Numbered from the stretch's first letter, positions 4,240-52,963 are shown. The stretch: DNA of 64,000 nt from Trueperaceae bacterium (GCA_034520945.1 JAXHNB010000001.1:64001-128000); one strand, 5' to 3'. The notes: generated by a model from the sequence alone, not told the origin. Made by a program: numbers and translations.

Positions 4240-5442
4240 ATGGACGACAGCGGCCCTGAGGCCCGCGGGGACGAGCAGGCCCCCTCGCCGACGCCCCCAG
4301 TGGGGGAGGCCGGCGCGTGGGTCGCGCGTTTGCACGCCACCGCGCACCGTAGCGTGTTCGCCTTCGCCGGCGCGGGCGCCGAGGCGCTGGCGTGGCTGCA
4401 CGCCGTCGGGGGCAGCAGCCGCACCATCTTGGAAGCGCACGATCACTACCATCCCGCCTCCCTGACCGAGGCGCTGGGCGGCGCGCCCGAGCGGGCTGCG
4501 GCGCCGGAGCCGACCCGTACGCTGGCGCGACGTTCGCTGGCGCGCGCACGCGCGCTGGTGCAGAGCGACCAACGGCCCGGCCCCGTGTTCGGCATGGGCC
4601 TCACCGCGACCCTGGCCACCGACCGCCCCAAGCGCGGCGAGCACAGGGCGCACCTGGCGACGGCGGACGCGCTCGGGACGCGGGGACTGGACCTGCACCT
4701 CCGCAAGGGTGCCCGCGAGCGCGCCGGGGAGGAGGCGCTCGTCGCATGGGCGGTGCTGCACGCCGCGGCCGGCGCGTGTGGCGTGATGGGCATGCCGCCC
4801 CTGGCCACGTTCGGGGACGAGGGGCCCGAGCATGCCTACCATCCCACCGAGGCGTACGCGGCGTTCCTGCACGACCCCTCGGCGATGCTGGCGATGGACC
4901 GGGACGGCGTGCCCGGTCCCGCCGCGTCTTTCGACGCGATGCCGGCCCTGGTGTCGGGGAGCTTCCATCCCTTGCACGAGGGGCACCTTCGCTTGGCCGA
5001 CGCGGCGAAGGCGTGGACGGGCGGCGAGGTGGGCTTCGAACTGCCGCTGGTGAACGCCGACAAGCCGGAGGTGGACGCCTCCGAGCTGGCGCGGCGGGCG
5101 GCGCAGTTCTTCGGGCGCGCGTCGGTGCTGCTCACGCATGCGCCACTGTTCGCGGACAAGGCGGAACGGCTGCCCGGCACGGTGTTCGTGATCGGTGTGG
5201 ACACGGCGCAGCGCGTGCTGGACCCCAGGTTCTACGGCGGCGACGCGGAGCGGGATGCCTCGCTGGCGCGCATCCGGACGGCCGGGTGCCGGTTCCTGGT
5301 GGCCGGGCGCGCCACGGAGGGGGCCTACCGCACCCTGGAGGACCTGGCGCTTCCGGCGGGCAGCGAGGATCTGTTCGAAGCGCTGCCGTCGTTCCGGGTG
5401 GACCTGTCCAGCACGGCGCTGCGGGCTTCCTGGATGCGGTGA
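4240..5442 (+). CDS. CinA-like N-terminal domain fused to an HxGH nucleotidyltransferase (NMN adenylyltransferase-like)
   Basis: SGSFHPLHEGH motif, VIGVDT and a C-terminal DLSSTALR; N-terminal GAGAEALAWL...GGSSRTILEA domain. Confidence 0.7.
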   Translation: MDDSGPEARGDEQAPSPTPPVGEAGAWVARLHATAHRSVFAFAGAGAEALAWLHAVGGSSRTILEAHDHYHPASLTEALGGAPERAAAPEPTRTLARRSLARARALVQSDQRPGPVFGMGLTATLATDRPKRGEHRAHLATADALGTRGLDLHLRKGARERAGEEALVAWAVLHAAAGACGVMGMPPLATFGDEGPEHAYHPTEAYAAFLHDPSAMLAMDRDGVPGPAASFDAMPALVSGSFHPLHEGHLRLADAAKAWTGGEVGFELPLVNADKPEVDASELARRAAQFFGRASVLLTHAPLFADKAERLPGTVFVIGVDTAQRVLDPRFYGGDAERDASLARIRTAGCRFLVAGRATEGAYRTLEDLALPAGSEDLFEALPSFRVDLSSTALRASWMR

Positions 5443-36999: not shown

Positions 37000-38370
37000 G
37001 TGATGCACACAGGCGACGCGCCCCCGAAGGACACGCGCGACCCCGCGGCCGGCGCCGCGTACCGCCTGCCCGGCGAGGCGACCCGCGCCCTGGCCGAGCG
37101 CCAGGCCCGCGCCCTGTTCCCCATCCAGTCCCGCATGGCGTACTACGGCGACGCCCCCCTCGCCGTCGCCCGCGGGGAGGGCTCCTGGTTGTGGGACGTC
37201 GAAGGCAACCGTTACCTCGACTTCTTCGGCGGCATCCTCACCGTCAGCGTCGGCCACGCCAACCCCGAGGTCGCAGACGCGGTCGAGCGGCAGCTCCGCA
37301 CCGTGCAGCACACCAGCACCCTCTACCTGAACGAGATCACCATCGACGCCGCCGAGCGCATCGCCAGGATCGCCCCCGGCCGGCTGCAGCACTGCTTCTT
37401 CACCAGCAGCGGCAGCGAAGCTGACGAGACCGCGGTGATGGCCGCCCGCATGTACACCGGCCACAGCGACGTGATCGCGCTGCGCCACGCCTACGCCGGC
37501 CGGACCGCCACCGCCATGAGCCTCACCGCTCACGCCAACTGGCGCCTGGGCGGGGTGTTCGACGGCGGCATCAAGCACGTCCGCAGCCCCTACGTCTACC
37601 GCGCGCCGGCCGGCCTGGACGAAGCCGGCCTGCTGGACCTGTGCGTGCAGGACCTGGAGGAGACGATCCAGACCTGCACCGATGGCCGCATCGCCGCGTT
37701 CATGGCCGAACCGATCCAGGGCGTCGGCGGGTTCGTGGTCGCGCCCCAGGACTACTTTCGCCGCATCGAACCGGTCGTGCGGGAGGCCGGCGGCGTGATG
37801 ATCATCGACGAGGTCCAGACCGGCTGGGGCCGCACCGGTCGCCACTGGTGCGGCATCGAGCACTGGGGGATCGAACCGGACGTCATGACCTTCGCCAAGG
37901 GCATCGCGAACGGATTCCCCGTCGGCTGCACCATCACCACGCCCGAGATCGCCGAAGCGGTCGACGGGCCCACGCTGTCCACCTTCGGCGGCAACCCGCT
38001 GGCGATGGCGGCGACGGTCGCCACGCTGGAGGTGATCGAACGTCACGACCTGCCCGCCAACGCAGAAGCGCGCGGAGCGCAGCTCCGCGAGCGGCTGGAC
38101 GCCCTTGCCCGCGTCACCCCCTGGATCGGCGAGGTGCGCGGCATGGGCCTGATGCAGGCGCTGGAGCTGGTGGAGGCCGGCGGCGGCAAGGCGCCCGACC
38201 CCGAACGGACGAACGCTCTGCTGGCCGCCGCGCGCCGTCACGGTTTGCTGATCGGAAAGGGCGGCCTGTACGGCAACGTGCTCCGCATCGCCCCGATGCT
38301 GAATGCCACCGAGGACGAGATCACGCAGGGCGCGGACCGCCTGGACGCCGCCGTGCGAGAGGTCGGGTAA
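37000..38370 (+). CDS. Class III PLP aminotransferase (AGXT2-like), copy 1
   Basis: YLDFFGG, SGSEADE, AEPIQGVGG, DEVQTGWGRTG, AKGIANG, STFGGNP. Confidence 0.92.
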   Translation: MMHTGDAPPKDTRDPAAGAAYRLPGEATRALAERQARALFPIQSRMAYYGDAPLAVARGEGSWLWDVEGNRYLDFFGGILTVSVGHANPEVADAVERQLRTVQHTSTLYLNEITIDAAERIARIAPGRLQHCFFTSSGSEADETAVMAARMYTGHSDVIALRHAYAGRTATAMSLTAHANWRLGGVFDGGIKHVRSPYVYRAPAGLDEAGLLDLCVQDLEETIQTCTDGRIAAFMAEPIQGVGGFVVAPQDYFRRIEPVVREAGGVMIIDEVQTGWGRTGRHWCGIEHWGIEPDVMTFAKGIANGFPVGCTITTPEIAEAVDGPTLSTFGGNPLAMAATVATLEVIERHDLPANAEARGAQLRERLDALARVTPWIGEVRGMGLMQALELVEAGGGKAPDPERTNALLAAARRHGLLIGKGGLYGNVLRIAPMLNATEDEITQGADRLDAAVREVG

Positions 38371-38405
38371 GGGTTTCGTTGGCGGCCCTTGCCTAGCGTA
38401 CAGCC

Positions 38406-40085
38406 ATGAACGCCTGGATCGTTCGGATCCCCGTCGCCCTGTTCGCCGCGCTGCTGGCGGTGGCGGCGGCGTTTCCCGCCACGCCCGTTCCGGTGCTGGG
38501 GCTGTCCGCGCTGTTGTTCGCGGCCGCCACCGCGCGGGCGTTCGGGCTGGGGGTGGCGTTGCTGGCGCTGCCGGTGGCCGCCACGGTGGTGGCCCGCCCC
38601 TGGAACGAAGCCGGCGGCGCGCTGAGTGTCGAACCGATGTTCCTCGCCGCCCTACCGGCGTTCGCGCTGGCCGGCCTCTGGATCGGCCGATTGGAGCGCC
38701 ACCTGGGCGCGCAACGCCAGGTGAGCAAACAGGCGCAGTTCGACCCCCTCACCGGCCTGCTGAACCGCACCGCCTTCGAGCGCATCGCGGGCGAGGCGAT
38801 GCTGGAGGCCCGCGAGCGCAACGGCATGGTCGCGATGTTGTTCATCGACCTGGACCGCTTCAAGGTCGTCAACGACACCTACGGGCACGAACTCGGCGAC
38901 GCCGTCCTGCGGCGCGTTGCCGACCTCCTCCGCGAGCACGTGCGGCAGGCCGACCTGGTCGGCCGCCTCGGCGGCGACGAGTTCACCGTCGCGCTCCGCA
39001 ACCTGCGCGAACCCGACAGCGCCGCCTCCGTCGCCCGCAAGCTGCTGAAGTTGCTCAACGAACCCCAGGAGGTCGCCGGCCGCCGCATCGAGGTCGGCGC
39101 CAGCATCGGCATCGCCATGTACCCCCGCGACGGCCAGGACGTCACCGAGCTGCTCAAGAACGCCGATCACGCCATGTACCAGATCAAGGACCGCGGCCGC
39201 AACGGCATCAGCTTCTCCAGCCACGAGACGCAGATCCGCAACGACCGCCGCATCGAGGTCGAGCGGCAACTGCGCGGCGCCCTCCACGAGGACGAGTTCG
39301 AGCTGCACTACCAACCCAAGGTCGACTTCCGCAGCGGCGGCCTGGCCGGCGTGGAGATGCTGCTCCGCTGGCGCAACCGTGACCTGGGCCTGGTGTCGCC
39401 TGATGAGTTCATCCCCATGGCGGAAGAGACCGGCATGATCCTGCCGCTGGGCCGCTGGCTGCTGCGCCAGGCCTGCTTCCAGCTGCGCGACTGGGACGAG
39501 GCCGGCCTGCCCCCCATCACCCTCGCCGTGAACGTCTCTACCCTGCAGTTCCGCCAACCCGACTTCGTCCACGCCGTCGAGGAGGCACTCCGCGACTCCG
39601 GGATCGCCCCCGCCCGCCTGGAGCTCGAGATCACCGAGTCCGTCCTGATGAAGGAATACGCCGCCTCCCTGCGCCAGCTCGAACGTCTCGCCGCCCTCGG
39701 CGTCGGCATCGCCCTGGACGACTTCGGCACCGGCTACTCCTCCCTCGCCTACCTGCAGAACCTGCCCATCCGCACCCTCAAGATCGACCGCTCGTTCGTG
39801 TCCGGCCTGACCCTGCGCGGCGGCGGCGAACCGGGCGGCACCGCCCCCATTGTCGAGACCATCCTCACCCTCGGCCAAAAACTCGGCAAGGAGATCGTTG
39901 CCGAAGGGGTCGAGACCCGCGGCCAGGCCCGCTGGCTGGCGCAATCCGGCTGCACCTACGGGCAGGGCTTCCTGTACGCCCGCCCGCAACCCGCCAGCCG
40001 CATCGCCAAGCTGCTGGAGCGGGCCGTGCCGGCGCCGACGCGCGCGGACGTGCGGGGGGAGCGGTTGTTGATGTCGGGGGCGTGA
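38406..40085 (+). CDS. Membrane-anchored GGDEF-EAL protein, copy 1
   Basis: N-terminal TM segments, DPLTGLLNR, RLGGDEF, EML, ELEITE, DDFGTGYSSL, AEGVE. Confidence 0.93.
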   Translation: MNAWIVRIPVALFAALLAVAAAFPATPVPVLGLSALLFAAATARAFGLGVALLALPVAATVVARPWNEAGGALSVEPMFLAALPAFALAGLWIGRLERHLGAQRQVSKQAQFDPLTGLLNRTAFERIAGEAMLEARERNGMVAMLFIDLDRFKVVNDTYGHELGDAVLRRVADLLREHVRQADLVGRLGGDEFTVALRNLREPDSAASVARKLLKLLNEPQEVAGRRIEVGASIGIAMYPRDGQDVTELLKNADHAMYQIKDRGRNGISFSSHETQIRNDRRIEVERQLRGALHEDEFELHYQPKVDFRSGGLAGVEMLLRWRNRDLGLVSPDEFIPMAEETGMILPLGRWLLRQACFQLRDWDEAGLPPITLAVNVSTLQFRQPDFVHAVEEALRDSGIAPARLELEITESVLMKEYAASLRQLERLAALGVGIALDDFGTGYSSLAYLQNLPIRTLKIDRSFVSGLTLRGGGEPGGTAPIVETILTLGQKLGKEIVAEGVETRGQARWLAQSGCTYGQGFLYARPQPASRIAKLLERAVPAPTRADVRGERLLMSGA

Positions 40086-47546: not shown

Positions 47547-47654
47547 CCCCGCGACCGCGAATTGGGCCCGCCCGCACGCGTGCTGGACTCGCCGCCAACG
47601 CCGCCGCGGCGGGGCCTTCGTCGGCCCCGAGCCCGCCCGGCCCAGGAGGTACGC

Positions 47655-48972
47655 ATGAGCGCGATGGAGACCCGCAGCCGCATGGCGGAGCTACGCGAAC
47701 GCCAGAAGCAGGCACTGTTCCCGATCCAGTCGAAGATGCTGCTCTACGGCGAGAAGCCCCTTGCCGTCGACCGCGCCGAGGGATCGACCGTGTGGGACGT
47801 CGAGGGCAACGAGTACCTCGACTTCTTCGGAGGCATCCTCATGGTGAGCGTGGGGCACGCCAACCCCGAGGTCGTCGAGGCCACGCATCAGCAACTCCAA
47901 CGCGTCCAGCACACCAGCGCGCTGTTCATCAACGAGAAGACCATCGAGGCCGCCGAGCGCATCGCGGAGGTCACGCCCGGGCGGCTGCGCAGCTGCTTCT
48001 TCACCAACTCCGGCAGCGAGGCCGATGAGACGGCCGTGATGGTCGCCCGCATGTACACCGGCAACACGGACGTGATCGCGCTGCGCCACGCCTACTCGGG
48101 ACGCACGGGCACCGCGATGAGCCTCACCGCGCAGAGCAATTGGCGCCTGGGCGGCGTCTTCGACGGCTCCATCAAGCACGTCCGCAACCCGTACCACTAC
48201 CGCGCGCCCCTTGATCTGGACGAGGACGAGTTCCTGGAGCTGTGCGCCCAGGACCTCGAGGAGACGATCGCGACCTGCACCAACGGCCGTATCGCCGCGT
48301 TCATGGCGGAGCCGATCCAGGGCGTGGGCGGCTTCGTGGTGGCGCCCCAGAAGTACTTCAAGCGCATCGAGCCGATCGTCAAGGACGCCGGCGGCCTTAT
48401 GATCATCGACGAGGTGCAGACCGGCTGGGGCCGGACCGGCACCCACTGGTGCGGCATCGAGCACTGGGGCATCGAGCCGGACGTGATGACCTTCGCGAAG
48501 GGCATCGCCAACGGCTTCCCCGTCGGTTGCACCATCACCACGCCCGAGGTCGCCGCTGCCGTCGACGGGCCCTCGCTGTCGACCTTCGGTGGCAACCCCG
48601 TGGCGATGGCCGCGACGCTGGCGACGCTCGACGTGATCGAGAAGAACGACCTGCCCGGCAACGCCGCCCGGCAGGGCGCGCGCCTCCGCGAGCGGCTCGA
48701 CGGCTTGCAGGCGCGCTACCCGTTCATCGGGGAGGTGCGCAGCATGGGCCTCATGCAGGGGCTGGAGCTCGTCGTGCCGGACAGCAGCAAGACGCCCGCA
48801 TCCCGCGCGCACGCAGGCGCTCACCGTCGCCGCGCGCAAGCACGGCCTGATCATCGGAAAGGGCGGGCTGTACGGCAACGTCATCCGCATGGCGCCGATG
48901 CTCAACAGCGACGCCGACGAGATCGACCGCGGCGTGGGCCTGCTGGAGGCGGCCCTCGGCGACGTGGCGTGA
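47655..48972 (+). pseudogene. Class III aminotransferase copy 2, +1 frameshift near 48799
   Basis: Close paralogue of 37000-38370. CCCGCATCCC should read CCC GAT CCC; GLIIGKGGLYGNVIRMAPML continues in the shifted frame to TGA 48970-48972. Confidence 0.85.
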
Positions 48973-49089
48973 TCCCCGCGCGTCCTCCTCGCGACGGGCG
49001 CGCTGGATACCGTACCCGACGCACGCGTCAGGATTCTGTGACGAACGCGTAAGTACGCCGTTGCGCGCCCTTCCGTAGGCTCCGACCAT

Positions 49090-49981
49090 GGTGCGTCGTG
49101 ACGAAGCTACGTTGTCTTCCCGGTTGGGGAGTGCGCTTGCTTCTTGCTGCACGTCTCTTGCGGGTGTGAGTCCCGTCCCGGTAGGTGTCGGAGCGCCGGG
49201 TAGCAGGCCCCAGGTGTTTGGGGGAGACCCCTTCGCCCGAGCGGGGTGTCGAAAGCCTGTGAGGCGACTTCGGTCGTTGAGTGGGGAGCAAGCGCGCGGG
49301 CCGCAACATGAAGTGAATCCTGCAGCCTCGTTAGAGTCACAATCCGGAAGCCGAGCCGCTCATGTCACGGTGAAGGCCACGTCTGGCACGCTTGTTCCGA
49401 AGCGCGTGTTGGGTTCCGGCGGGGTACGGGGAGCAGCACGCGTGCATAGAGGGGTGTGGAACTCGAGAGGCCCGTCTCGGTTGCCGTTGCCGCGGCAAGG
49501 CGTTTCGTATAAGTCAAGGACGAAGTCGAGCGCTGCCGAGCGGGAGTCCGAGGGGACCGTAGTACTGTTGTCTGCCTTGTGTGGGTGGGCGCGATGGTCG
49601 TGTGGCAGAACGCGGCTGGAGGGAAGGGTCCCTGCGGTGGTTGGTGTCGTTGATGTGGGTAAGCGCGAGGGCATGGCCGGCTGGACCGGTTCTAACTACC
49701 CCCTGGGGCTCTGGTCTCATGGTGAAAGCGCGAGATCTGCGGAGGCGACTGTGGGTTGGGGCCAACTGGCCGTTCCAGGCGTGCGTTCATGCTGTTGTGC
49801 CAACTTCTTGGGGTGGCGCCCTGGGGAGGGTGTGAAGGCGTGTTTCTGGGCGGGTTGGGTAAAGCCTCGACTTGAGCGGCCACCGGAAAGCCGTGTGCGG
49901 GAAATCCGCACGCACGGTTTGAACGGGGGTCTTGACTACCATGCCCGCCGTAAGGCGCGGAAGGAGTAAGGATCTACCAAT
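49090..49981 (+). mobile_element. ORF-less (RT-deleted) group II intron at the start codon of the GGDEF-EAL gene
   Basis: GTGCG at 49091; domain V AAGCCGTGTGCGG-GAAA-TCCGC-AC-GCACGGTTT (49888-49920) with AGC triad; domain VI with bulged A 49976; ends CCAAT. Only a short trace resembling the start of an intron-encoded protein remains (~49660-49765). Confidence 0.9.
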
Positions 49982-51247
49982 GGCCGCGTGGACCCGAATG
50001 CTCCTGACGCTCCTGGTGTGGGCGATCCTCGTGGTCGTGGCGGTGAGCGGCTGGCTGGACGCCGCCGCCGTGGCCGCACTGGCCCTGCCGGCCGCGTTCG
50101 TGGCCGGCAGGACGTTTCGCTGAACGGGTGGGATCGTCGGCGCCGTGGTCGCCTGGGCCCTGCTGCGTGCCGCCCAGGTCGAGGCCGGTGGGTCCTGGGT
50201 GCCGGCTGCATTCTCCCCAGGGCTCATGGAGCCCATGGCGCTCGTCGCCATGGGGTCGGCGGCGCCTGGGTGTCGTACCTGCAGGCACAGCTCGACTCGC
50301 AGCGGATTGCCTCGGCGAAAGCCCAGTACGATCCCCTCACCGGGCTCCTCAATCGCGCCGCCTTCGAAGCCAAGGTTCACGACGCGATGTCCGAGACCTA
50401 CGAGCGCGGCTCGATCCTCGCGCTCCTGTTCGTGGACCTCGACCGCTTCAAGTTCGTCAACGACACCTATGGCCACGAGGTCGGCGACAGGCTTCTGCGG
50501 CGTGTGGCCAAGATCCTGGGCGAGCATGTCCGCGAGCACGACCTGGTCGGGCGCCTGGGCGGCGACGAGTTCACCGTCGCCGTACCCGGCTCCGCGAGGA
50601 GGATTCCGCGCGGGCGGTGGCCCGCAAACTGGTGTCCGTGCTCAACGAGCCCCACCACATCGACGGCCGGATGGTGCACGTCAGCGCCAGCATCGGCGTC
50701 TCCATCTACCCGCGTGACGGCACCACCGTCGACGCCCTGCTCAAGAACGCCGATCACGCCATGTACCTGGTCAAGGAGGGCGGCAAGAACGGCGTCTTCG
50801 TGACCACGCTCGAATCGCAGCGTGTCAACGGTCGCCGGCTGGACCTCGAGAAGCAGCTGCGCGCGGCGCTCCAGGAGGACGAGTTCGAGCTTTACTACCA
50901 ACCGAAGGTCGACCTCCGCACCGGCGCGCCCGTCGGGGTCGAGATGCTGCTGCGCTGGCGCAACCGGGAGCTGGGTCTGGTCTCGCCGGAGGAGTTCATC
51001 CCCATGGCGGAGGAGACGGGACTCATCGTGCCCCTCGGGCAGTGGTTGATGCGGCAGGCCTGCCACCAGCTGCGCGACTGGGACCGGGCCGGGCTCCCGC
51101 CCGTGGAGTTGGCGGTCAACGTGTCCACGCTGCAGTTCCGCCAACCGGACTTTGTCGCCGCCGTCGAGGGCGCGCTGGACGACAGCGGCCTGCCGCCCGA
51201 CCGGTTGGAGATCGAGGTCACCGAGAGCGTGTTGATGCGCGAGCTAG
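49980..51247 (+). pseudogene. GGDEF-EAL protein copy 2: nonsense codon, two frameshifts, truncated by IS
   Basis: MAAWTR start resembles MNAWIVR of copy 1; TGA 50121-50123; shifts near 50255 and 50590; RLGGDEF present; EAL domain stops at EVTESVLMREL. Confidence 0.88.
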
Positions 51248-52963
51248 CCCGCTTTATTCATGAGAGGCGCTGTTGGGCGGGTTTCGGGTGGGGTTGGGCG
51301 GCGTGAGCGGGGGGTCACGCTCGTCGGTGGGCGTGTCGGGGTTTCGTTGGTGGCATTGTGGGTGGTTCGGACGTCGTGAACGAGGTTCACGAGGCCTGAA
51401 GGGCCGCGTTGGGGCGTAGGGGGCCCTTCGGCGCCAGGGGTTGGCGTCGATCGTGGGGTCGAGGTTCGTTATTGGGGCTTCGGGGGTCGTTCAGGCGGTG
51501 CTGGTGGCTTGCAGGGCTCTGGCGACGTGCCGCCATTCCTGTTGCCAGGGGGCGTCCTGGGGGAGGTGCAGGACGATGCGGCGGGCGGAGGTCTTGATCC
51601 ACGCGCCGAGCTTGATGAGGCGCTCGCGGAGGGTGCCCGCGTACGCGCGGGCCAAGCTCGTGCCGGCCGCGTGCAGCCGGAGTTCCTGGTACAAGGCGTA
51701 CGCGGCGGTGTGCAGCAGCAGGCGGGCTTGGTTGGCGAGGAACCGCGTGCAACTGAGCCGGTCTGCGGCCAGGTGCTCCTGCAGTTCTTTCAGGCGGTTC
51801 TCCATGTCGCCGCGCTTGGCGTACATGCGGCGGTAGATCACTTCCGGATCGGCGCCTACGTTGGTGATGAGGAAGCGGGGGTTGTCCCGCGCCTCCCGCC
51901 CGGGATGCTGGGTGACTTCGGACTTGTACACGACCGTTCGTTCGTGCGGCCAGCTGCGCGTCTGGTAGGGGGGCGTGCCCGTAGCGGCGTTCGCTCTGCC
52001 CGCTCGCCGCGCTGGCCTGACGGGCGTCACGCATGCGGGGTTCCGCCAGGCGTTCCAACACCGGGTTCTTGGAAATCCCGACCACGTACTCCACGCCCTC
52101 TTCCTCGAGGAACGAGAAGATCTCGGGGAGGCGAACCCGCCGTCCAACCGCACCCGCAAGCGCGCCTTGGGGAACGCACCTCGGAGGCGCGCCAGGATGC
52201 GGCGCAACAACCCCGTCGCGCCCAGGGCGGGTGGCGCGTTGCCCTTCCGCAGGAGGCTCGTCAAGACGTACTGATCCCGTTCTTGCTCGAACTGCATGGA
52301 GGCAACCAACGGCAAGTAGCAGTGCTCCCCGTAAAACCCGTTGAACAACGCGCCCTGCTGCGCCCCGTGCGTGGGGTCGTCCGTGCCGTCCACATCGACC
52401 GTGATGCGTTTCGCCCGGCCCCGACGGTGGGCCCGGTGCCGTTCGATCACACCCTCGGCGAGGGCGACGCCCATCTCGAACACCTCCCGGCGCGTCACGC
52501 CGTTCTCGAACCGTGACAGCGTCGGTTGCGACGCGAGATCTGCTCCCCGTTCGGGGTCCCGGTCGACCACCAGCTTGTGCATGGGGTCGTGCCGCAACCT
52601 TGCGGCGTCGTTGCCGTCCTCGTACCCGCAGGCGATCCCGACCACCCGCTGGCGAAGCACGTCCCCAAACGAGTGCTGCACGCGCTCCGGGTCCCGCCGG
52701 TCCCTCAACACCGACGCCATCGCGGTCGTCAAGCCCAGCCGGTCGTCCGCGCCGCGAAGCAACACCGCCCCACCATCGCTGGTGCCGAGCGGCTGATCGA
52801 ACATCGCCACCAACGGCTTCGTGAACCACCCCTCGAACAACACAGGCTGTTGCGTGCTATCCTCGCGCATTAGAAGGCCTCCAACGTGTAGGAAGTTCGT
52901 GCCTCACACCCTTTCTACCACGTTCGAGGCCTTCACGTTTCCAACCCTCACGAATAATTCAGG
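51248..52963 (-). mobile_element. IS1380-family insertion sequence (~1.7 kb)
   Basis: Imperfect terminal IRs CCCGCTTTATTCATGAG / CCTGAATTATTCGTGAG; CTAG on both flanks (51244-51247, 52964-52967). Confidence 0.88.
51491..52870 (-). CDS. IS1380-family DDE transposase with two compensating indels
   Basis: TSDGGAVLL, GYEDGND, ASQPTLSRFEN, DVDGTDDPTHGAQ, YAKRGDMENRLKE. The segment ~51970-52127 is out of frame (EIFSFLEEEGVEYVVG lies in another frame). Confidence 0.85.
   Translation of the reverse strand: MREDSTQQPVLFEGWFTKPLVAMFDQPLGTSDGGAVLLRGADDRLGLTTAMASVLRDRRDPERVQHSFGDVLRQRVVGIACGYEDGNDAARLRHDPMHKLVVDRDPERGADLASQPTLSRFENGVTRREVFEMGVALAEGVIERHRAHRRGRAKRITVDVDGTDDPTHGAQQGALFNGFYGEHCYLPLVASMQFEQERDQYVLTSLLRKGNAPPALGATGLLRRILARLRGAFPKARLRVRLDGGFASPRSSRSSRKRAWSTWSGFPRTRCWNAWRNPACVTPVRPARRAGRANAATGTPPYQTRSWPHERTVVYKSEVTQHPGREARDNPRFLITNVGADPEVIYRRMYAKRGDMENRLKELQEHLAADRLSCTRFLANQARLLLHTAAYALYQELRLHAAGTSLARAYAGTLRERLIKLGAWIKTSARRIVLHLPQDAPWQQEWRHVARALQATSTA

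Follow-up and report, generated by a model that had tools for sequence, protein, structure and literature searches.

A group II intron lacking its reverse transcriptase directly behind a start codon in a Trueperaceae bacterium, and its relatives at similar sites

The Locus

The stretch of DNA analysed here, 64,000 nucleotides (nt) from a Trueperaceae bacterium (GCA_034520945.1, JAXHNB010000001.1:64001-128000), is called the window throughout, and positions are counted from its first letter. It contains a group II intron, deprived of its reverse transcriptase (RT) gene, that lies directly behind the start codon of a gene for a GGDEF-EAL protein. Read from the sequence, the upstream flank consists of a hexamer resembling a −10 box (TAGGCT), the six bases CCGACC (49082–49087) and ATG (49088–49090), followed at once by the GTGCG with which the intron begins. 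The 3' part of the intron reads ...AAGGAGTAAGGATCTACCA-ATG and is followed by GCC GCG TGG of the host open reading frame (ORF). A preliminary description, prepared by a model from the sequence of the window, had proposed an RT-less group II intron at a start codon, with the −10-like box 6 nt before the ATG and the same layout at a paralogue starting at 38406; all of this is borne out below. Very probably, positions 49091–49982 are an RT-less copy of a mobile group II intron lineage whose RT has no endonuclease (En) domain and which homes to start codons of the leaderless type.

The identity of the element is secured by the covariance-model search that the preliminary description had recommended. 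Two Rfam models match above their gathering scores, group-II-D1D4-4 (RF02003; Table 1) and the domain V/domain VI model RF00029 (49886–49953, 44.5 bits against a gathering score of 40), and there is no other Rfam match in the 64-kb window. The intron is colinear with full-length relatives at nt 1–753 and 763–891, and between nt 753 and 763 about 1.17 kb of the RT ORF has been deleted, leaving the window intron with no RT gene. A remnant ORF (49581–49835) persists in the domain IV region; the remnant RT start codon, at 49719, is now out of frame with the ATG on the 5' side. Contigs from two sequencing runs, X1 and X2, cover 48800–49197 and 49894–50400 with no differences and bridge both junctions, so the junctions are real sequence and not an assembly slip.

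On sequence grounds, the 5' end of the intron is set by the GUGCG motif and by the pairing of exon-binding site 1 (EBS1) with its intron-binding site (IBS1). The 3' end is best placed after G49982, from the covariation of EBS3 with IBS3, the position of the branch-point A seventh from the end and the frame of the host ORF. The resulting terminus, ...AAUG, departs from the usual AY; the bases AU precede the last G. The preliminary description had assigned only that AT to the intron and had let the first exon base, a G, complete the ATG. EBS3 covariation moves the splice site to the other side of this G, and the unit is 892 rather than 891 nt long. The predicted intron-free form of the site is TAGGCTCCGACC-ATG-GCC.

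By sequence the ribozyme looks complete: domains I–III are colinear with those of relatives, domain V is intact, and domain VI carries a bulged A 7 nt from the end. In an alignment of 29 sequences, 97.6% of domain V cells are paired. The basal helix of domain VI is 88.5% paired and has five covarying pairs, and its branch A is invariant and unpaired (A49976, the seventh base from the end if G49982 is the last). RNAalifold run on domains V and VI predicted domain V only, and domain VI was scored with a structure given by hand; when this geometry was checked on the alignment, 93.9% of cells were paired, versus 27%–50% with the partner columns slid.

A side observation concerns the domain IV remnant. 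Eighteen of its nucleotides (window 49795–49812, around the RT deletion) recur a few bases downstream of the intron at another locus, L040, within a 427-codon ORF, which may be chance or a common mobile-element end.

Table 1. Coordinates of the intron, its parts and the surrounding features in the window
Feature	Position	Strand	Basis and remarks
Group II intron, RT ORF deleted	49091..49982	+	892 nt, GUGCG...ACCAAUG; Rfam matches, colinear relatives
−10-like hexamer TAGGCT	49076..49081	+	Start codon 6 nt downstream; sequence reading
IBS1, C-ATG	49087..49090	+	The host gene itself starts at this ATG, which forms the final three bases of the 5' exon
Intron-terminal AUG	49980..49982	+	Immediately before the second host codon
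Open frame from the host ATG	49088..49969	+	293 codons through the intron; TAA at 49967–49969, 10 nt before the 3' AUG
Domain I core	49158..49311	+	RF02003, 73.0 bits against a gathering score of 49
EBS1, CAUG	49361..49364	+	9-nt loop, closing CCG/CGG; loop alignment of 56 copies, covariation
EBS3 (C)	49427..49427	+	Partner is G49983, where the 3' exon begins; intron nt 337
Domain IV remnant	49586..49870	+	IVa-type region, first ~35 RT codons, deletion junction ~49843–49853
Domain V hairpin	49888..49920	+	AGC triad, 2-nt bulge; RF00029, fold
Domain VI	49925..49978	+	Bulged branch-point A at 49976; centroid fold
Shine–Dalgarno-like AAGGAG / AAGGA	49961..49972	+	3' strand of domain VI; sequence reading
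Decayed GGDEF-EAL gene	49983..51306	+	In-frame TGA at 50121–50123, frameshift at ~50270, another inside GGDEF, EAL shortened
Insertion sequence transposase (DDE_Tnp_1_4) truncating EAL	51491..52870	−	Pfam E-value 1.4e-111
Intact GGDEF-EAL paralogue, 559 aa	38394..40085	+	TAGCGT-ACAGCC-ATG AAC GCC TGG, start at 38406; model of the intron-free site

Insertion Sites across the Lineage

Relatives were collected by searching species-representative genomes with the RT encoded by a second, partial copy on contig C5 of the same genome (see below). At least 585 stretches matched, and the best 80, with 49%–77% RT identity, were kept. Sites were counted over these 80 loci together with the window and a further copy, 72% identical, in a genome of the same family (G060), with junctions located by BLAST and motif search. 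The hosts, as named in the records, are Actinomycetota, Myxococcota, Acidobacteriota, Planctomycetota, Gemmatimonadales, proteobacterial metagenome-assembled genomes and others. In G060 the 5' flank reads TAACCT-CGACCC-ATG and is followed by GTGCG; among the relatives the intron opens with GTGCG in 35 cases, TTGCG in 25 and GTGTG in four.

The 5' junction is visible in 64 loci, and the three bases before it are ATG in 55, GTG in six and ACG in one; the remaining two loci, L079 and L081, are outgroups at 49% identity. With these two set aside, ATG or GTG precedes 61 of the 62 lineage copies. A TANNNT box stands 4–9 nt upstream of this codon in 54 of the 57 flanks of at least 20 nt, the misses being L050 and the same two outgroups, while such a box accompanies only 216 of all 9,515 ATGs (2.3%) in the same loci. 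The spacing is 6 nt in 35 matches, 7 nt in 14, 8 nt in five and 4 nt in two, and both 4-nt matches sit in flanks that have another box at 6–8 nt.

The 3' end is as uniform. Among the 70 visible 3' junctions, 69 end in ATG (...ACCA-ATG) and one in GTG. Judged by GC content at third codon positions (GC3), the best downstream reading frame coincides with that set by the 3' ATG in 49 of 61 loci and is shifted by +1 in eight and by +2 in four; under a strict criterion the two frames agree in 19 of 19 loci. The N-termini encoded behind the 3' ATG resemble genuine protein starts. The combination of start codon and −10 box that the preliminary description saw around a single intron is therefore a property of the lineage.

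One group of copies and two single copies depart from the common form in other ways. The actinobacterial-type copies (L015–L052 and others; 25 of 64) start with UUGCG, are without a ~40-nt insertion near the 5' end, and have a tail, ...CCCCUGACUACCAAUG, that carries no motif of Shine–Dalgarno (SD) type. At the 3' junction of L030 (about 4390–4430), ...CTACCA is followed by a 16-nt repeat of that copy's own 5' flank, TAAGCT-CGGCGTC-ATG, and then by the host ORF. Because the repeat precedes the ORF, the host gene there retains its own −10 box and ATG; this end may be an aberrant integration or repair product. The insert at L060 is 3,954 nt long, ~2 kb above its relatives, with an RT frame that opens only at nt ~2503, and may hold a nested element inside the intron.

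Exon-Binding Sites

To find how the target is read, we made an alignment of the 5'-terminal 560 nt from 56 copies and compared each of its columns with each position of the flanks. Exon positions −1, −2, −3 and −4 pair with intron nt 271, 272, 273 and 274 (CAUG). Position −3 and nt 273 form A-T in 50 copies, G-C in four and G-T in two; position −4 and nt 274 are paired in 53 of 56 (C-G 38, G-T nine, T-A five, A-T one, unpaired three). On the 3' side, nt 337 is the sole column that passes the filter; as expected of EBS3, it can form a pair with the base following the 3' ATG in 46 of 49 copies (G-C 18, A-T 16, C-G 11, T-G one). For exon positions −5 to −12, the 56 copies show no covarying column, so that no EBS2 is seen, although an alignment-dependent miss is possible. 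A pairing of the 3' AUG itself with EBS1 was considered and rejected: of the copies with CAC as EBS1 (L019, L020 and L035), only L019 ends in GUG.

In the window copy, CAUG pairs with CATG and C49427 with G49983 (Table 1). The preliminary description had found no convincing EBS1; there is one, of 4 bp, and it covaries at positions −3 and −4 across the 56 copies. As EBS1 and EBS3 both fit its flanks, the window copy is at a cognate site. From the covariation of the two it also follows that the 5' exon ends with the start codon, that the 3' exon begins with codon 2, and that the terminal AUG is wholly intronic. Splicing would therefore restore ATG-GCC, and ordinary splicing of this kind is, as far as the pairings indicate, structurally provided for.

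Reverse Transcriptase Sources

The genome assembly (10 contigs, 3.47 Mb, 71% GC) holds one candidate source of RT. Beyond its match to itself, the intron matches two pieces of a single fragment on contig C5 (835794–837315 of that contig, G000; L002:1501-3052; L003), at 91% identity over intron nt 496–675, the domain IVa region, and at 93% over nt 781–847. The fragment is without domains I–III and the 3' half of domain VI and has kept domain V. Its ORF of 476 aa (RT 437–476 aa) contains RVT_1 and GIIM, has no endonuclease domain, ends ~40 residues past GIIM, and scores 410 bits on TIGR04416 (cut-off 300). A tblastn search of the assembly found no second intact RT of this type.

Of 22 sequencing runs, X1 and X2 alone contain the window stretch (74% and 67% of sampled words). 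Among their contigs matching window 49343–49762 (records 5 and 14) is one of 1,751 nt from an RT-bearing relative, ~92% identical from intron nt ~253, with a more complete 5' side than the C5 fragment and a depth ~3-fold that of the window's own contigs. Its presence in the same runs indicates a further RT source in the same community. Contigs of the two RNA runs, X20 and X21, are 85%–95% relatives of the intron from other loci.

The C5 fragment has as neighbours a divergent peptidyl-prolyl isomerase gene and a PilT-like gene with its ATG ~30 nt downstream (MLSNLVERGASDVHL...). A distant RT-like fragment lies elsewhere on that contig (576427–576906) and is 39% identical to the C5 RT over 161 aa.

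A Reading Frame Continuous with the Host Start Codon

The frame that opens at the host ATG crosses the window intron almost to its end (Table 1). In 14 of the 62 lineage copies, which are the window's closest RT-bearing relatives, this frame stays open for 630–965 codons and runs into the RT, whereas the other two frames close after 5–76 and 3–9 codons. The distance from the ATG to the GxxGVD motif takes six values (243, 246, 247, 250, 258 and 259 codons), none of which breaks the frame. In an alignment of 15 sequences with pairwise identities of 70%–99%, stop columns within the first 200 codons number 0 in frame 0, 22 in frame 1 and 24 in frame 2; 19 of those in each of frames 1 and 2 occur in at most seven sequences each and so arose after divergence. 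Seven of nine distinct gap runs are multiples of three. The per-sequence count of stop columns replaced a consensus-based test of stop-creating variants (eight observed against 15.4 expected; 47 of 2,000 simulations as low); that test is unsound, since the frame of the consensus is displaced by two gap runs of 1 nt.

We infer that selection keeps frame 0 open in this fused sublineage, with the caution that related sequences are not independent observations. The simplest reading would be that its RT is translated from the host start codon: because the frame from the host ATG passes stop-free through domains I–III into the RT, the lineage would use the host promoter and leaderless start for its own protein.

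Protein databases contain such products. The 230 ribozyme-encoded residues of one fused ORF match 2,464 protein clusters (E-value ≤1e-5), the best-listed of which are mostly 617–680 aa long with RVT_1 and GIIM. Three of five fetched proteins start with MVRP or MVRR, which corresponds to ATG followed by GUGCGUC.... In the other two, P0036 and P0098, the insertion stands behind an internal Met codon and the host frame is continuous into the intron.

The 3' AUG

At its other end, the intron carries a start codon of its own, and we agree with the preliminary description that it is in frame with the host ORF and that an SD-like motif lies 7 nt before it inside domain VI. This motif is AAGGA at 49968–49972, on the 3' strand of the domain, with AAGGAG further upstream; in the predicted fold, the SD-like bases are paired within domain VI. 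SD-like 4-mers (AGGA, GGAG or GAGG at −18 to −5) occur in 21 of 70 tails, namely in 21 of 35 non-actinobacterial tails and in none of the 35 of actinobacterial type. Where both junctions are visible and the 5' codon is GTG, the 3' codon stays AUG in four of five copies. Since AUG is kept where the host codon is GTG, the 3' AUG is not a copy of the target. It might plausibly serve as a spare start codon.

Host Gene and Genome Context

The gene behind the intron has decayed, as seen from its ORF pieces, Pfam matches and comparison with the paralogue (Table 1), and 49894–50400 agrees without a difference with the X1 and X2 contigs. The intron is thus a passenger in a pseudogene, the host gene being now a decayed duplicate. 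The duplication is segmental and comprises a class III aminotransferase gene together with the GGDEF-EAL gene (window ~37000–40085 versus 47562–51306). The upstream pair, ~10 kb from the interrupted one, is intact, while the downstream aminotransferase gene is apparently frameshifted.

A search of 128 genomes of the family with 49983–50900 gave no intron-free orthologue of the N-terminal part; all listed matches run from query position 297 on, in or near GGDEF. As that part is too diverged for a near-identical empty site, the paralogue (TAGCGT-ACAGCC-ATG-AAC) and the intron-free homologues in G118 and G120 (TACGCT-GACCAGCG-ATG-AAC) were used as models of the empty site. These intron-free genes show the −10 box, a spacer of 6–8 nt, ATG and codon 2.

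This layout is widespread in the host genome. TANNNT-N6-ATG occurs 309 times and TANNNT-N7-ATG 211 times genome-wide, against 43–66 occurrences at spacings of 3, 12 and 20 nt. Of the N6 and N7 sites, 54% and 58% open an ORF that reaches 150 codons and a GC3 of 0.85, versus 21% of any ATG. Being both enriched and associated with ORFs, leaderless-type starts are evidently common in this organism. A scan for sigma-70-type promoters found no sites, but it requires a −35 match and barely addresses promoters that have a −10 box only.

Proposed Mechanism

Taken together, these observations suggest the following course of events. Reverse splicing would have placed the intron immediately after the start codon of a GGDEF-EAL gene of leaderless type (TAGGCT-N6-ATG). 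Five base pairs would read this site, EBS1 pairing with the start codon and the base before it, and EBS3 (C337) with the base that opens codon 2. Removal of the intron at GUGCG...AAUG| would restore ATG-GCC, and unspliced RNA would still offer an AUG in frame, preceded in this copy by AAGGA at a distance of 7 nt. In the closest relatives, the intron's own protein would be expressed from the host promoter and leaderless ATG. A single deletion of ~1.17 kb would have taken away the RT of the window copy, for which the C5 RT could act in trans.

A more far-reaching proposal, which we put forward tentatively and hold to be somewhat less probable than its negation, is that the lineage parasitises leaderless gene starts as complete expression units, combining 5-bp pairing with reading of the −10 box, taking the host AUG for its fused RT, and carrying a spare 3' AUG and, in some sublineages, an SD motif. 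In this proposal, with a pairing of only 5 bp, some reading of the −10 region would have to add to it; this could consist of RT contacts with positions −15 to −10 or of access to the melted promoter.

Several observations weigh against these proposals. The sample of relatives was drawn by RT similarity and possibly favours active copies. At five loci (L015, L033, L040, L070 and L076) only 2–24 open codons follow the 3' ATG. In P0036 and P0098 a long ORF continues upstream of MVRR, in P0036 one of glycosyl-hydrolase family 2; therefore, not every insertion is at a gene start. Nor is the fused frame general: among the 55 copies for which the two junctions are both visible, 16 have the RT in frame 0 (13 of them open all the way from the ATG), 14 in frame 1 and 25 in frame 2. 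In the actinobacterial type, frame 0 ends at ~125 codons and overlaps the RT frame, which is open by nt ~158, a layout in which a programmed frameshift is conceivable. The RT of the window copy, like that of the C5 fragment, starts in another frame than the one upstream. Translation of the RT could in truth begin at a conserved in-frame ATG within domain IV (...REGMAG...). The UG end, in place of the usual AY, is unusual, and the 3' boundary would be set by covariation, geometry and frame. If transcription begins at the A of the ATG, the 5' exon of the RNA would be 3 nt long, a weak hold for exon ligation. Finally, among the contigs of X1, X2, X20 and X21 (the latter two from RNA) that match at 85% likeness, none joins 49090 to 49983, and thus no intron-free allele and no spliced RNA was seen; the runs are kept as contigs, which cannot reveal RNA ends.

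Alternative Explanations

The preliminary description favoured a different role, in which the element remains unspliced as a structured 5' leader of ~890 nt and domain VI supplies SD and AUG to keep the gene translatable. For the copy in the window this fails today, because the gene downstream is broken by the TGA, at least two frameshifts and the truncation by an insertion sequence, and there is nothing left to be kept translatable. The near invariance of the terminal AUG (69 of 70), always abutting codon 2, its retention with GTG-type targets, which it therefore does not mirror, and the difficulty that a 3-nt RNA 5' exon would pose for exon ligation all speak for a leader; here, moreover, AAGGA precedes the AUG, and the frame from the 5' ATG ends in TAA 10 nt before it, which would allow re-initiation. 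Yet the SD-like bases, frequent as they are in non-actinobacterial tails, are paired in domain VI and missing from the actinobacterial-type ones. EBS1 and EBS3 covary with their exon partners, and conservation extends to domain V and to domain VI, branch A included, which together indicate selection for splicing and reverse splicing. We therefore regard an unspliced leader as unlikely to be the explanation of the element; as a second function, it may still hold for members of the lineage that are live.

Whether the window copy is still active is a separate matter. It could be an inert fossil that has ceased to splice or move and owes its features to an active parent, for it has no RT in cis, its RT remnant is frameshifted relative to the upstream frame, no spliced form appears among the contigs, the sole RT-bearing relative in the assembled genome is truncated at both ends, and in a decayed host gene there is no selection for splicing. 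Against this, all ribozyme domains are present, EBS1 and EBS3 still fit the flanks, the 293-codon frame is still open, and help in trans is conceivable from the intact RT whose domain IVa region is 91% identical or from the abundant second relative in the same runs. We give the fossil a serious chance, though a little under even. In the reading that we prefer, an RT-less copy of a mobile, start-codon-homing lineage, splicing and mobilisation in trans would remain within reach.

Comparison with Known Introns

A kinship with the intron of Azotobacter groEL had also been suggested. According to PMC12584367, domain I of the groEL-type IIB1 clade described by Michel, Costa and co-workers (Avi.groEL, EcKTE56.groEL) carries a subdomain Ia of 300–700 nt at its base, the RT is of the CL1 lineage and has a C-terminal endonuclease, and EBS2/IBS2 pairing (plus EBS2a) is canonical; the hosts are proteobacteria, and members sit in or beside start and stop codons, the groEL introns between the second and third bases of a stop codon, where they turn TAA into TAG. 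The two lineages are alike in being mobile group II introns tied to a translation signal, in inserting at a start or stop codon and in having an end that rebuilds a codon. They differ in several other respects. The window lineage enters after the third base of a start codon and ends in AUG, pairs by 4 + 1 bp where the groEL type uses EBS1, EBS2 and EBS2a, and is found in hosts of many phyla (as named in records) rather than in proteobacteria. It has no large 5'-subterminal insertion, the D1D4-4 match starting at intron nt 68 and the conserved core at nt ~67, with only ~40 bases over the shortest relatives. The RTs of the relatives have RVT_1 and GIIM but no En domain, the cognate RT ends ~40 residues past its maturase domain, and no column covaries with exon positions −5 to −12. 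The proposed kinship does not survive this comparison, and membership in the groEL-type clade is, in our estimation, highly improbable.

In working, though not in kind, the lineage resembles group IIC, which pairs minimally (a short IBS1 and IBS3, no EBS2) and depends on upstream context (PMC12584367); the likeness lies in the 4-bp IBS1, the 1-bp IBS3, the missing EBS2 and the use of upstream context. The context itself is different, a terminator or attC hairpin in group IIC and a −10-like hexamer 6–8 nt before the start codon here. No terminator-like site was found in 48900–50100. The standard bulged A of domain VI further sets the lineage apart from group IIC, as may a domain I core that matches Rfam D1D4-4.

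In the yeast mitochondrial introns aI1 and aI2, the intron protein is translated in frame with the upstream exon through domains I–III. The fused sublineage is like them in that an intron ORF is continuous with the upstream exon frame across these domains. It is unlike them in that the exon gives the start codon only, in its bacterial hosts, in its restriction to one sublineage (14 of 62 copies), and in that its translation from the exon is a prediction.

ORF-less introns served in trans by a related RT are known from the TeI3 family of Thermosynechococcus (PMC2882425) and the dnaN introns of Trichodesmium (PMC12584367). The window copy is like them in its internal deletion, in a retained domain IV region that would serve for binding and in a related RT elsewhere in the genome, a putative helper; in the window's case, by contrast, the RT donor fragment is truncated at both ends and the host gene is a pseudogene. 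En-less RT varieties g1–g4, some from Actinobacteria and myxobacteria, have been reported by Toro and Martinez-Abarca (PMC3552965), whose main text is silent on insertion sites. The C5 RT has a YADD motif, which argues against g2, where the motif is FADD. An attempt to assign the RT to a class via solved structures was dropped, since RTs of different classes score alike (E-values 1.5e-51 to 2.8e-45) and the scores do not discriminate. A literature search turned up no description of an En-less lineage that homes to start codons of leaderless genes, although Michel et al. 2007 may contain one. Apparently, then, the lineage is widespread and undescribed.

Implications

The copy in the window is a decaying passenger without evident present use to its host, and it is the features of the lineage that merit attention: recognition of the start codon by an EBS, the −10 box upstream, the AUG at the intron's end and the fused RT frame.

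Bacterial group II introns are thought to persist by avoiding genes or by splicing out cleanly. The present lineage departs from this picture: its EBS reads a start codon, in nearly all copies a −10-like box lies 6–8 nt before that codon, the intron brings a replacement AUG, and in one large sublineage the RT frame is fused to the host start and stays stop-free across the ribozyme.

Some consequences concern annotation. Thousands of "reverse transcriptases" of 620–680 aa begin with ~200 ribozyme-encoded residues, and genes that lie behind such introns have two candidate start codons.

If the proposed reading is true, the lineage would represent a new targeting logic for retroelements, in which the homing site is a promoter together with its start codon. 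It would also show that a bacterial intron can have its protein translated from an initiation signal of the host, a counterpart of yeast aI1 and aI2, and would offer a natural system for splicing with a 5' exon of 3 nt.

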